Source: Escherichia coli
Lineage (GTDB): Bacteria; Pseudomonadota; Gammaproteobacteria; Enterobacterales; Enterobacteriaceae
Strand: one strand, 5' to 3'
NCBI RefSeq assembly: GCF_003334815.1
Contig: NZ_QOWO01000019.1
DNA: 64,000 bases
Shown here: positions 19,685 through 26,103 of the stretch, in pieces
How the letters are laid out: every line of letters begins with the position of its first letter
How positions within the stretch are numbered: position 1 is the stretch's first letter
Translations under genes and position numbers: made by a program
The notes under the pieces: model-generated
Told to the model about the DNA's origin: nothing
The model's input: the letters and a program-made list of their open reading frames with translations, nothing else
Databases searched by the model: none

Positions 19685-20248
19685 ATGAGTAAGTTTGTTA
19701 AAACAGCTATTGCTGCGGCAATGGTGATGGGCGCGTTCACCTCTACGGCAACAATCGCTGCGGGTAACAACGGTACTGCACGTTTTTACGGCACCATTGA
19801 AGACTCAGTGTGTTCTATCGTTCCGGACGATCACAAACTGGAAGTTGATATGGGTGATATCGGTGCCGAAAAACTGAAAAATAACGGCACCACCACGCCG
19901 AAAAATTTCCAGATTCGCCTGCAAGATTGCGTATTTGATACTCAGGAAACAATGACCACTACCTTTACTGGTACCGTTTCTTCTGCAAATAGCGGCAATT
20001 ATTACACCATTTTCAATACCGATACCGGTGCGGCATTTAACAATGTTAGCCTGGCGATCGGTGACTCTCTGGGTACCTCTTACAAAAGCGGCATGGGTAT
20101 TGACCAGAAAATCGTGAAAGATACTGCCACTAATAAAGGCAAAGCGAAGCAGACTCTGAACTTTAAAGCCTGGCTGGTCGGCGCAGCTGATGCGCCAGAT
20201 CTGGGTAATTTCGAAGCAAATACCACCTTCCAGATTACTTACCTGTAA
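19685..20248 (+). CDS. yfcV: Fimbrial major subunit (pilin) YfcV
   Basis: 187-aa ORF with signal peptide, the Cys pair typical of CU pilins and a C-terminal beta-strand ending ...TTFQITYL; first gene after a 680-bp AT-rich leader. Confidence 0.85.
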   Translation: MSKFVKTAIAAAMVMGAFTSTATIAAGNNGTARFYGTIEDSVCSIVPDDHKLEVDMGDIGAEKLKNNGTTTPKNFQIRLQDCVFDTQETMTTTFTGTVSSANSGNYYTIFNTDTGAAFNNVSLAIGDSLGTSYKSGMGIDQKIVKDTATNKGKAKQTLNFKAWLVGAADAPDLGNFEANTTFQITYL

Positions 20249-20329
20249 GGCATACCCCCATAGCGACACTGCTATGGGGTATTTAAATGGATTTTGACCG
20301 AACAAGAATAAAAACGGATAAAAACGTGT

Positions 20330-22975
20330 ATGCCTGACCATTCTCTTTTTCGATTACGGATTCTTCCGTGGTGCATTGCGCTGGCAATGTCAGGGAGTTA
20401 TAGCAGTGTCTGGGCTGAAGACGACATTCAGTTTGATTCCCGTTTTCTGGAATTAAAAGGCGACACAAAAATTGATCTGAAGCGTTTTTCCAGCCAGGGG
20501 TATGTTGAGCCCGGAAAATACAATTTACAGGTTCAACTAAATAAACAGCCATTGGCGGAAGAGTACGATATTTACTGGTATGCTGGTGAAGATGACGTTA
20601 GCAAAAGCTATGCTTGTCTGACACCGGAACTGGTGGCGCAGTTTGGTTTAAAAGAAGACGTGGCGAAAAATCTGCAATGGAGCCACGATGGTAAATGCCT
20701 GAAGCCCGGTCAACTGGAAGGCGTGGAAATTAAGGCTGATTTAAGCCAGTCCGCATTAGTCATTTCACTACCGCAGGCTTACCTCGAATATACCTGGCCC
20801 GACTGGGATCCACCTTCTCGTTGGGATGATGGCATCTCCGGGATCATTGCGGACTACAGCATCACTGCGCAAACACGACACGAAGAAAATGGCGGCGATG
20901 ACAGTAACGAGATCAGCGGCAACGGGACGGTCGGGGTTAACCTGGGGCCATGGCGTATGCGCGCTGACTGGCAGACCAACTATCAACATACGCGCAGTAA
21001 TGATGATGACGATGAATTTGGCGGCGATGACACACAAAAAAAATGGGAGTGGAGTCGCTATTATGCCTGGCGGGCGTTACCGTCATTAAAAGCCAAACTG
21101 GCGCTGGGCGAAGATTACCTCAATTCCGATATTTTCGACGGTTTTAATTATGTTGGTGGCAGTGTCAGCACTGACGATCAAATGTTGCCTCCCAATCTGC
21201 GCGGCTACGCGCCAGACATTTCCGGCGTGGCACACACCACAGCAAAAGTGACCGTCAGCCAGATGGGGCGTGTGATTTACGAAACGCAGGTTCCGGCTGG
21301 ACCGTTTCGTATTCAGGATCTTGGTGATTCCGTCTCCGGTACGTTGCATATTCGCATTGAAGAACAGAACGGCCAGGTGCAGGAATATGACATCAGCACC
21401 GCCTCGATGCCATACCTCACTCGCCCAGGCCAGGTTCGCTATAAGATCATGATGGGACGTCCGCAAGAGTGGGGCCACCATGTCGAGGGGGGATTTTTCT
21501 CTGGTGCTGAAGCCTCCTGGGGCATCGCTAACGGCTGGTCGTTATATGGCGGTGCGCTGGGTGATGAAAACTATCAGTCTGCGGCGCTGGGCGTCGGTCG
21601 CGATTTGTCTACCTTCGGCGCGGTCGCGTTTGATGTTACTCATTCGCATACCAAACTGGATAAAGACACCGCTTATGGCAAAGGTTCGCTGGACGGTAAC
21701 TCCTTCCGTGTGAGTTATTCCAAAGACTTTGACCAGCTCAACAGCCGCGTCACTTTCGCTGGATATCGCTTCTCGGAAGAGAACTTTATGACCATGAGCG
21801 AGTATCTGGATGCCAGTGACAGCGAAATGGTCCGTACGGGCAACGACAAAGAGATGTACACCGCCACTTATAACCAGAACTTCCGCGATGCGGGTGTTTC
21901 GGTTTATCTCAACTATACCCGCCATACCTACTGGGATCGTGAGGAGCAGACAAACTACAACATCATGCTCTCCCACTATTTCAATATGGGCAGCATTCGT
22001 AATATGAGCGTTTCCCTGACTGGCTACCGCTACGAGTATGACAACCGGGCGGATAAGGGCATGTACATTTCGCTCAGTATGCCGTGGGGCGACAACAGTA
22101 CCGTTAGCTATAACGGCAACTATGGCAGTGGGACGGACAGCAGCCAGGTCGGTTATTTTAGCCGTGTCGATGACGCGACTCACTATCAGTTGAACATCGG
22201 CACCAGTGACAAACACACCAGCGTTGATGGCTACTACAGCCATGATGGTTCGCTGGCGCAGGTTGACCTCAGTGCGAACTACCATGAAGGGCAATACACC
22301 TCTGCGGGCTTGTCGTTACAGGGCGGCGCAACGCTTACTACCCACGGCGGCGCACTTCACCGTACCCAGAATATGGGCGGGACACGCCTGCTGATTGATG
22401 CCGATGGCGTTGCCGATGTTCCGGTGGAAGGTAACGGGGCTGCTGTTTATACCAATATGTTTGGTAAAGCCGTCGTTTCTGACGTTAACAATTATTATCG
22501 CAATCAGGCGTATATCGACCTCAACAAATTGCCGGAAAACGCCGAAGCAACCCAGTCGGTGGTGCAAGCCACGCTAACTGAAGGAGCCATTGGCTACCGC
22601 AAATTTGCCGTCATCAGTGGTCAAAAAGCGATGGCGGTGCTGCGTTTACAAGATGGCAGCCATCCACCGTTTGGCGCAGAAGTAAAAAATGATAACGAGC
22701 AGACAGTGGGCCTTGTCGATGATGACGGTAGTGTCTATCTGGCTGGGGTGAAACCTGGCGAACATATGAGTGTGTTCTGGAGTGGTGTTGCGCATTGCGA
22801 TATCAACCTGCCGGACCCGCTGCCTGCCGATCTGTTTAACGGCTTGTTACTGCCATGCCAGCATAAAGGCAACGTCGCGCCGGTTGTTCCTGATGACATA
22901 AAGCCTGTCATTCAGGAGCAGACGCAACAGGTGACACCCACCGATCCCCCTGTTTCTGTTTCAGCTAACCAATAA
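20330..22975 (+). CDS. yfcU: Fimbrial outer-membrane usher, full length
   Basis: Uninterrupted 881-aa ORF with signal peptide and usher-family organisation (N-terminal domain, beta-barrel, C-terminal domains with conserved Cys pair). Confidence 0.88.
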   Translation: MPDHSLFRLRILPWCIALAMSGSYSSVWAEDDIQFDSRFLELKGDTKIDLKRFSSQGYVEPGKYNLQVQLNKQPLAEEYDIYWYAGEDDVSKSYACLTPELVAQFGLKEDVAKNLQWSHDGKCLKPGQLEGVEIKADLSQSALVISLPQAYLEYTWPDWDPPSRWDDGISGIIADYSITAQTRHEENGGDDSNEISGNGTVGVNLGPWRMRADWQTNYQHTRSNDDDDEFGGDDTQKKWEWSRYYAWRALPSLKAKLALGEDYLNSDIFDGFNYVGGSVSTDDQMLPPNLRGYAPDISGVAHTTAKVTVSQMGRVIYETQVPAGPFRIQDLGDSVSGTLHIRIEEQNGQVQEYDISTASMPYLTRPGQVRYKIMMGRPQEWGHHVEGGFFSGAEASWGIANGWSLYGGALGDENYQSAALGVGRDLSTFGAVAFDVTHSHTKLDKDTAYGKGSLDGNSFRVSYSKDFDQLNSRVTFAGYRFSEENFMTMSEYLDASDSEMVRTGNDKEMYTATYNQNFRDAGVSVYLNYTRHTYWDREEQTNYNIMLSHYFNMGSIRNMSVSLTGYRYEYDNRADKGMYISLSMPWGDNSTVSYNGNYGSGTDSSQVGYFSRVDDATHYQLNIGTSDKHTSVDGYYSHDGSLAQVDLSANYHEGQYTSAGLSLQGGATLTTHGGALHRTQNMGGTRLLIDADGVADVPVEGNGAAVYTNMFGKAVVSDVNNYYRNQAYIDLNKLPENAEATQSVVQATLTEGAIGYRKFAVISGQKAMAVLRLQDGSHPPFGAEVKNDNEQTVGLVDDDGSVYLAGVKPGEHMSVFWSGVAHCDINLPDPLPADLFNGLLLPCQHKGNVAPVVPDDIKPVIQEQTQQVTPTDPPVSVSANQ

Positions 22976-25280: not shown

Positions 25281-25281
25281 A

Positions 25282-26103
25282 ATGAAAATACTACGATGGT
25301 TGTTCGCTCTGGTCATGCTTATTGCTACTACAGAAGCTATGGCTGCCGGGCATAGCGTTGACGTTTACTACGGTTACAACGGTGATTCGCGTAATATTGC
25401 GACTTTTAATTTAAAAATAATGATGCCATCCGCAGTGTACGTTGGTGAATATAAAAGTAGTCAATGGCTCATGACTGGGGAAATATTGCAAAATGTGAGC
25501 TGGAGTGGTCCTCCTCCTGCCCCTTCGGTTAAGCTGATTGGCTACCATCAAAATATCAACAAAGCAAGTTGTCCTGGATTACCGTCTGGGTGGAACTGCG
25601 GGTATTATACATTTGAGGTTATTGTCTCTGCAGAGATTGAATCTTACTTTTCTTGTCCATGGTTGGTTATTATGAATGACTCTGAAGCCTCTCCAGGGGG
25701 CGTGACGTATCAGGGGCCTGATAGTCACGACACGATTTGTCCATCCGTTTCTGTTCAACCTTATGACGTTTCATGGAATGAGAATTATGTCAGTAAGTCA
25801 AAACTGCTCACCCTGCAGTCGACGGGCGGTGTGGTTGAGAAAACGCTTTCAACGTATTTGATGAAAGATGGGAAGTTGTGCGACAGTACGCAGATGAATG
25901 AAACAGGTGGTTACTGCCGCTGGGTTGCACAGATGATAACTTTTACCGCGTCGGGATGTGACAAGGCGGAAGTCTCGGTCACGCCAAATCGACACCCTAT
26001 AACGGACAAACAGTTACACGATATGGTCGTGCGTGTTGATACCAGCAGTATGCAGCCAATCGATTCTACTTGCCGGTTCCAGTACATACTGAATGAGTTG
26101 TAG
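25282..26103 (+). CDS. yfcO: Secreted Cys-rich protein YfcO, last gene of the fimbrial operon (possible tip adhesin)
   Basis: 273-aa ORF MKILRWLFALVMLIATTEAMA... with signal peptide and 9 Cys; ORF track starts 5 codons earlier inside yfcP; no pilin C-terminal motif. Confidence 0.8.
   Translation: MKILRWLFALVMLIATTEAMAAGHSVDVYYGYNGDSRNIATFNLKIMMPSAVYVGEYKSSQWLMTGEILQNVSWSGPPPAPSVKLIGYHQNINKASCPGLPSGWNCGYYTFEVIVSAEIESYFSCPWLVIMNDSEASPGGVTYQGPDSHDTICPSVSVQPYDVSWNENYVSKSKLLTLQSTGGVVEKTLSTYLMKDGKLCDSTQMNETGGYCRWVAQMITFTASGCDKAEVSVTPNRHPITDKQLHDMVVRVDTSSMQPIDSTCRFQYILNEL

Follow-up and report, generated by a model that had tools for sequence, protein, structure and literature searches.

The Yfc operon and its closest described systems

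The yfc fimbrial operon analyzed here lies in a 64,000-nucleotide stretch of Escherichia coli DNA (contig NZ_QOWO01000019.1 of assembly GCF_003334815.1), which is called the window throughout. Yfc is a catalogued fimbrial type of E. coli, and both the operon and the yfcU pseudogene of K-12 are already known. Wurpel et al. (2013), who defined the type by locus position together with usher phylogeny, described Yfc as core-associated, present in almost all E. coli, and functional but cryptic (PMC3559732). The closest described system is the corresponding locus of K-12 strain MG1655 (b2332-b2339 and b4661, with the usher formerly listed as yfcT plus yfcU), which occupies the same site, flanked by sixA and smrB, and consists of the same seven genes. 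By its locus and by its identity to K-12, the operon in the window belongs to the Yfc type. Two differences separate the systems: MG1655 carries TAG at usher codon 579, making yfcU a pseudogene, whereas the window carries TAC and encodes a full-length usher; and MG1655 carries the CPS-53 prophage at argW, which is missing from the window. We read the region as a wild-type, uninterrupted allele of the chromosomal Yfc operon, a Pap-like (pi-clade) chaperone-usher system, and assign this reading a probability of roughly 0.88.

The stfACDEFGH operon of Salmonella enterica equals yfc in gene order and gene number. All Yfc products except YfcO have an Stf or Ste protein as their top NCBIfam match, while YfcO and StfH share Pfam domain DUF2544 and the name "StfH/YfcO family fimbrial adhesin." Stf differs in that YfcV, YfcS, YfcR, YfcQ, and YfcP score under the equivalog cutoffs of the corresponding models. 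The yfc and stf clusters have been called orthologous, Stf fimbriae have been visualized, and StfH alleles alter cell binding (PMC5343171). Yfc/Stf is not among the six types that Wurpel et al. placed at the same locus in both genera (PMC3559732).

The P pilus operon (papA...papC-papD...papG) supplies the nearest solved relatives of YfcU and YfcS, namely, PapC and PapD. Both operons run from major pilin through usher, chaperone, and minor pilins to a known or predicted adhesin gene in last position, and the same donor-strand exchange is expected for both. Unlike the P pilus operon, yfc has neither papI/papB-type regulators upstream nor a PapH-like gene between major pilin and usher, and YfcO displays no detectable sequence similarity and no strong structural similarity to PapG. 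The genomic context differs as well, with yfc in the core chromosome and the P pilus on a pathogenicity island (PMC3559732).

Usher codon 579 in the window and in K-12

Across window positions 19000-26200, comparison with MG1655 (NC_000913.3) retrieved one mismatch in 7201 bases. This mismatch, at position 22066 (C in the window, G in K-12), falls in usher codon 579, which reads TAC (Tyr) in the window and TAG (amber) in K-12. The six non-usher Yfc proteins are identical to those of MG1655, and yfcV is identical to its K-12 counterpart at the DNA level. An earlier note on this DNA, made from the letters alone, had described the usher as a single uninterrupted ORF (open reading frame) of 881 amino acids and had given the K-12 copy as disrupted. 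Both statements were borne out. The yfcU ORF (20330-22975) contains no internal stop across all 881 amino acids, and the MG1655 annotation lists yfcU (b4661), also 2646 nt long, as a pseudogene (positions 6357-9002 of the compared MG1655 locus). The alignment against K-12 yfcU that the note had proposed as a check placed the lesion at the single base 22066; the K-12 usher is not intact. Two further genomes of K-12 type, NCM3722 and an O16:H48 isolate, are likewise marked "internal stop" at the usher, and earlier gene lists for K-12 count yfcT and yfcU separately, reflecting the split usher. A literature search found no explicit description of the yfcU amber codon.

Codon 579 is TAC in REL606 (E. 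coli B), O157:H7, and A1_181, TAT in an O139:H1 strain, and TAG in NCM3722. Because tyrosine is found in four other lineages and the stop in the early-diverging NCM3722, Tyr579 is the ancestral state, and the K-12 lineage acquired the stop before its laboratory sublines separated. A 61-mer centered on the site had perfect matches with TAC in 24% (1320/5426) and with TAG in 7% (363/5426) of complete E. coli genomes. Among eight sampled perfect TAG matches, seven were named or described laboratory strains (MG1655, JM109, ER1709, "Dam/Dcm," and others); for the eighth, TP6-1, a human host is listed. At least 59 listed natural isolates of human, animal, and environmental origin carry an usher with 100% identity to that of the window over all 2646 nt. 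Since TAC is the commoner form and natural isolates carry an identical usher, natural E. coli normally has an intact usher and K-12 is exceptional. The ratio of nonsynonymous to synonymous substitution rates (dN/dS) for the usher, 0.05-0.07 between the window and four lineages, is that of a gene under strong purifying selection.

Tyr579 aligns to PapC Tyr540, inside the region of the PapC translocation-domain crystal construct. The derived C-to-G change in K-12, by converting Tyr579 to amber, would cut off the end of the barrel, so that the K-12 usher product would be without the barrel end and both C-terminal domains. PMC5343171, citing Korea et al. (2010), reports that K-12 yfc yielded no detectable fimbriae when its expression was forced, a result that fits a truncated usher. 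K-12 experiments on "cryptic" fimbriae used an usher truncated at codon 579; thus, their negative results for Yfc should not be generalized to natural E. coli. Yfc assembly and the uncharacterized YfcO adhesin would best be studied with a one-base repair or with the window allele. The discovery value of the locus itself is small, because Yfc is catalogued and the K-12 pseudogene is already annotated in the reference genome.

Clade placement, subunits, and allelic variation

YfcU matched NCBIfam model NF011812 with 1886.8 bits (cutoff, 972) over positions 1-881 of 881. In a search of solved structures, it scored 723.5 bits to PapC versus 262-265 bits to FimD. Residues 34-844 were aligned with PapC (7lhg_C; E = 3e-216), the PapC translocation-domain barrel construct 2vqi covers YfcU residues 158-675, and the PapC C-terminal domain structures 3l48 and 2kt6 cover residues 758-844. 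YfcU thus contains the parts of a full-length usher, namely, an N-terminal domain, a barrel with plug, and C-terminal domains. YfcS likewise scored highest to PapD (202 bits), followed by YadV (101 bits) and FimC (about 88 bits); its top NCBIfam match, StfD, reached 345 bits, under the cutoff of 447. The order of major pilin, usher, and chaperone (yfcV, yfcU, yfcS) is the same here and in five other alleles. Taken together, the usher and chaperone scores and the gene order support the pi (Pap-like) placement, in which the clade is that of the usher-based classification of Nuccio and Baumler and the call compares scores rather than branches of a phylogenetic tree. The earlier note's reading of usher before chaperone as a Pap-like arrangement therefore holds, and a published table also enters yfc as pi type (PMC3032704).

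Each of the seven products has a match to a fimbrial family model or Pfam entry, which identifies the ORFs as real genes and not chance ORFs. The top NCBIfam match of YfcV was StfA, at full length (102 bits versus a cutoff of 267), and FimA/FimF chains in the PDB were also matched. YfcV has a signal-peptide-like N terminus, a Cys43/Cys82 pair, and the C terminus FQITYL. The top matches of the other pilins were StfE for YfcR (146.6 bits; cutoff, 264), StfF for YfcQ (151.5 bits; cutoff, 253), and SteF and StfG for YfcP (about 146-150 bits; 146 versus a cutoff of 253). A signal-peptide-like N terminus, a cysteine pair, and a C-terminal beta-strand motif with a near-terminal tyrosine occur in YfcV, YfcR, YfcQ, and YfcP, with the last three ending in MVVDYQ, LRVDYQ, and ATFEYI, respectively. 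Judged by these scores, YfcV, YfcS, YfcR, YfcQ, and YfcP are Stf-related family members, not Stf equivalogs.

YfcO belongs to Pfam DUF2544 (E = 6e-138), contains 8 cysteines, and is named "StfH/YfcO family fimbrial adhesin" in RefSeq. Its ORF of 273 amino acids begins at ATG 25282, and the longest ORF begins at TTG 25267; the ATG lies 1 nt past the yfcP stop and is not preceded by a Shine-Dalgarno sequence. A structure model built from an 83-sequence alignment was confident, and one built from a 6-sequence alignment had a predicted local distance difference test score (pLDDT) of 56. Fold searches with the confident model retrieved only generic immunoglobulin-like matches.

Five other yfc loci were compared with the window, giving six alleles in all. 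The seven genes lie between sixA and smrB in each of the five, with the usher intact in four and frameshifted in one. Protein identity between lineages was 65-100% for YfcV, YfcU, and YfcS and 41-78% for YfcR, YfcQ, YfcP, and YfcO. The low identity of the tip proteins extends to REL606, although YfcV is 100% identical there. Megablast matches from genomes with divergent tip genes end at about window position 23754, the yfcS/yfcR boundary. The yfc locus is mosaic, in a pattern that suggests exchange of the minor pilin and adhesin alleles as cassettes. An earlier paper also noted that yfc genes are highly polymorphic (PMC4850163). The frameshifted usher is that of bovine isolate F2_407_2_2 (positions 1834-4478 of the compared locus), and insertions of the insertion sequence (IS) elements IS421, IS1A, IS5, ISEc35, or IS903B lie in or beside the locus in several genomes.

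The mechanism proposed for Yfc follows the established chaperone-usher scheme. Sec would export all seven products, and the PapD-like YfcS would cap each pilin by donor-strand complementation. YfcU, predicted to comprise a 24-stranded barrel, a plug, an N-terminal domain, and two C-terminal domains, would recruit chaperone-subunit complexes and polymerize the subunits by donor-strand exchange. In the expected fimbria, YfcO would be the tip adhesin, YfcP, YfcQ, and YfcR would be tip or adaptor subunits, and YfcV would form the rod. Translation of the tip module would be coupled through the ATGA overlaps at yfcR/yfcQ and yfcQ/yfcP and the 1-nt spacer at yfcP/yfcO, and the hairpin past yfcV is probably what keeps the major pilin in excess of the products of the downstream genes. 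The suggestion in the earlier note that this strain may be able to assemble Yfc fimbriae is a reasonable one and fits the reported lack of fimbriae upon forced yfc expression in K-12.

Alternative readings, expression, and genomic setting

Several observations weigh against the reading as a wild-type Yfc operon of Pap-like type. YfcV, YfcS, YfcR, YfcQ, and YfcP do not reach Stf equivalog status, all scoring under the NCBIfam cutoffs. YfcO has no NCBIfam match and no close solved structural relative, and its predicted adhesin role is drawn from operon position, a two-domain model, and work on Salmonella StfH. In the upstream region, sigma-70-like matches at 19273-19301 and 19443-19472 were no commoner than in shuffled sequence. 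Wurpel et al. described yfc as "intact in all genomes," including three K-12 strains (PMC3559732); this statement conflicts with TAG579 in MG1655, which indicates that the lesion is easily overlooked. Finally, in its account of forced expression of K-12 yfc, PMC5343171 also gives a 10-fold increase in binding to T24 bladder cells.

The last of these results bears on whether the K-12 amber codon matters, because it implies that a truncated usher may not abolish every phenotype. Were another usher or low read-through to compensate, the amber would be inconsequential and an intact yfcU would add no capacity over K-12; many K-12 cloning strains do carry amber suppressors. We nevertheless regard this as very unlikely. 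About 97 residues of the barrel-construct region are lost through the stop, as are the C-terminal domains to which 3l48 and 2kt6 align. Work on PapC and FimD has established that usher C-terminal domains are needed for assembly, and ushers of different clades in general cross-complement poorly. The absence of detected Yfc fimbriae in K-12, as given in PMC5343171 for forced expression, also argues against compensation. A separate doubt is whether the window might be K-12 itself, with C22066 arising from a sequencing mistake, reversion in the laboratory, or engineering and not being a natural allele, given that the locus is otherwise base-for-base that of MG1655 over 7.2 kb. This account is effectively refuted. 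Positions 8947-63923 of the window differ from MG1655 at 9 of 54,977 bases, so that 8 further single-nucleotide polymorphisms (SNPs) occur in 55 kb; the argW site is empty, with no CPS-53; and the window ends in part of an IS150 element, lying between yfbS and hxpA, that K-12 lacks at this site. In addition, positions 1-25000, including TAC579, match several natural isolates perfectly, and the TAC context is present in 1320 genomes. By these comparisons, the window is a natural close relative of K-12, not K-12.

A different objection accepts the intact operon and holds that it is a cryptic locus under permanent, H-NS-type silencing, such that usher intactness has no phenotype. The 32% GC content of the upstream region, the "cryptic" label in the literature (PMC3559732), and the independent inactivations (the F2_407_2_2 frameshift and the IS insertions in several genomes) are all compatible with permanent silencing. 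However, the usher dN/dS of 0.05-0.07 and the intact ORFs in four of five divergent lineages indicate ongoing selection, and the diversified tip alleles are all open with conserved cysteines and junctions, as expected for an adhesin in use. The wide use of yfcV as a marker associated with uropathogenic E. coli (PMC9765037) also speaks against a locus that is never expressed. On balance, permanent silencing is unlikely, and a wild-type allele of a selectively maintained operon remains the preferred reading. A more far-reaching proposal can be advanced tentatively, at somewhat less than even odds: the change from Tyr579 to amber would be the whole reason that Yfc fimbriae are unseen in K-12, the window allele or a one-base repair of MG1655 would give a visible pi-type fimbria, its tip protein YfcO would have a receptor-binding domain that lacks any solved structural relative, and lineages would exchange the tip module as a cassette with its left boundary at the yfcS/yfcR junction.

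The 680-bp sixA-yfcV region has a GC content of 0.32, and that of the operon is about 0.50. No regulator ORF was found upstream of yfcV, as the 680-bp region contains only short unsupported ORFs. Pap-like upstream regulation was considered and rejected, with no papI/papB-like ORFs found between sixA and yfcV. The upstream region also yielded no Rfam match, and promoter and terminator scans performed no better than on shuffled sequences. Two GATC sites at 19438 and 19582, 144 bp apart, each directly follow a T7 tract (GTTTTTTTAGAAGATC and GTTTTTTTGGATC). Two such sites in 680 bp is the count predicted by the GATC density of the window; thus, they are a curiosity with respect to Dam/Lrp-type phase variation. 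From the AT-rich upstream region and the "cryptic" label (PMC3559732), we infer H-NS silencing, and the locus is probably silent under laboratory conditions.

Two hairpins are predicted in and next to the operon. Directly past the yfcV stop, the stem-loop at 20256-20279 has a folding energy of -17.2 kcal/mol (z = -2.9). The four closest alleles share its CCCCATAGC/GCTATGGGG stem, and so does O139:H1 apart from one G-U wobble, even as the loop and flanks vary between alleles. The terminator scan did not call this hairpin, whose T tract is weak. Judging from other fimbrial operons, its probable role is to adjust the level of major pilin relative to the downstream products. The hairpin at 26119-26140 has folding energies of -21.6 kcal/mol on the plus strand (z = -4.0) and -23.5 kcal/mol on the minus strand (z = -3.0) and is likely the operon terminator.

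At the gene junctions, the earlier note had listed ATGA overlaps at yfcS/yfcR, yfcR/yfcQ, and yfcQ/yfcP and a 1-nt separation at yfcP/yfcO, from which it had proposed translational coupling. The yfcR/yfcQ and yfcQ/yfcP junctions are true ATGA 4-nt stop/start overlaps, and yfcP/yfcO has the form TAA-A-ATG with a 1-nt spacer, as described. The yfcS/yfcR junction does not conform; taken from the annotated start, it reads TGATG and overlaps by 1 nt. The gaps at yfcV/yfcU and yfcU/yfcS are 81 nt and 19 nt, respectively. Both ATGA overlaps and the stop-N-ATG spacing of yfcP/yfcO are kept in all six alleles. Because this geometry persists at protein identities of only 42-78%, translational coupling of the tip module is supported at these three junctions; it is not supported at yfcS/yfcR, where the junction is not conserved. 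In four of five other alleles, the annotated yfcR start lies 10-16 nt past the yfcS stop and is preceded by a Shine-Dalgarno sequence; in A1_181, RefSeq places the start at an upstream overlapping ATG, and a downstream ATG lies 16 nt past the yfcS stop. In the window, this start corresponds to ATG 23762 (GGGGGAG-TT-ATG; product MSQKF...), 15 nt downstream of the annotated ATG 23747. Comparison of the alleles indicates that the yfcS/yfcR overlap is probably an artifact of choosing the longest ORF and that ATG 23762 is probably the true yfcR start.

The ORF listing confirmed the gene layout given in the earlier note, with seven fimbrial ORFs in the order yfcV-U-S-R-Q-P-O, all on the plus strand, in window positions 19685-26103 (table below). 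The locus is flanked upstream by fadJ (16172-18316) and sixA (18519-19004) and downstream by the convergent smrB (26174-26725, minus strand), formerly yfcN. The flanks agree with the MG1655 annotation, and the position of the locus relative to sixA and smrB is constant in every genome examined.

Features of the yfc locus, in window coordinates, with the evidence for each
Feature	Coordinates	Strand	Evidence or remark
sixA-yfcV intergenic region, presumed promoter/regulatory region	19005..19684	+	AT-rich, without regulator ORF
yfcV, major pilin subunit, 187 aa	19685..20248	+	StfA model, PDB FimA/FimF chain matches
Stem-loop, candidate attenuator or mRNA-stabilizing hairpin	20256..20279	+	Folding energy, stem conservation
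yfcU, outer-membrane usher, 881 aa	20330..22975	+	NF011812, PapC alignment
Usher codon 579, TAC (Tyr)	22064..22066	+	Comparison with MG1655
yfcS, PapD-like periplasmic chaperone, 250 aa	22995..23747	+	PapD match, StfD model
yfcR, minor pilin, 170 aa as annotated (165 aa from ATG 23762)	23747..24259	+	StfE model
yfcQ, minor pilin, 162 aa	24256..24744	+	StfF model
yfcP, minor pilin, 179 aa	24741..25280	+	SteF/StfG models
yfcO, predicted tip adhesin, StfH/YfcO family, 273 aa	25282..26103	+	Pfam DUF2544
GC-rich hairpin, likely operon terminator, between convergent yfcO and smrB	26119..26140		Folding energy

Outside the operon, the eight other SNPs relative to MG1655 are at window positions 10828, 31377, 38236, 38657, 39998, 45008, 45048, and 62387; in MG1655 coordinates, they lie in or near mlaA, yfcL, pdxB, the usg-pdxB spacer, truA, cvpA (two), and yfbV. 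Positions 63924-64000 are the terminal ∼77 bases of IS150 (IS3 family), located between yfbS and hxpA. This IS150 junction was found in none of the 5426 complete E. coli genomes (no match over at least 80% of the probe). The argW gene, tRNA-Arg(CCU), occupies 8948-9022 on the minus strand, with its site empty of the CPS-53 prophage. A different prophage at positions 1-8946 was considered and rejected. K-12 records match the 25-kb query (positions 1-25000) in two or three pieces over about 35-36 kb, 10-11.5 kb longer than the query, and positions 1-8946 correspond to the emrY/dsdX region, found in K-12 on the far side of the 10-kb CPS-53 prophage.

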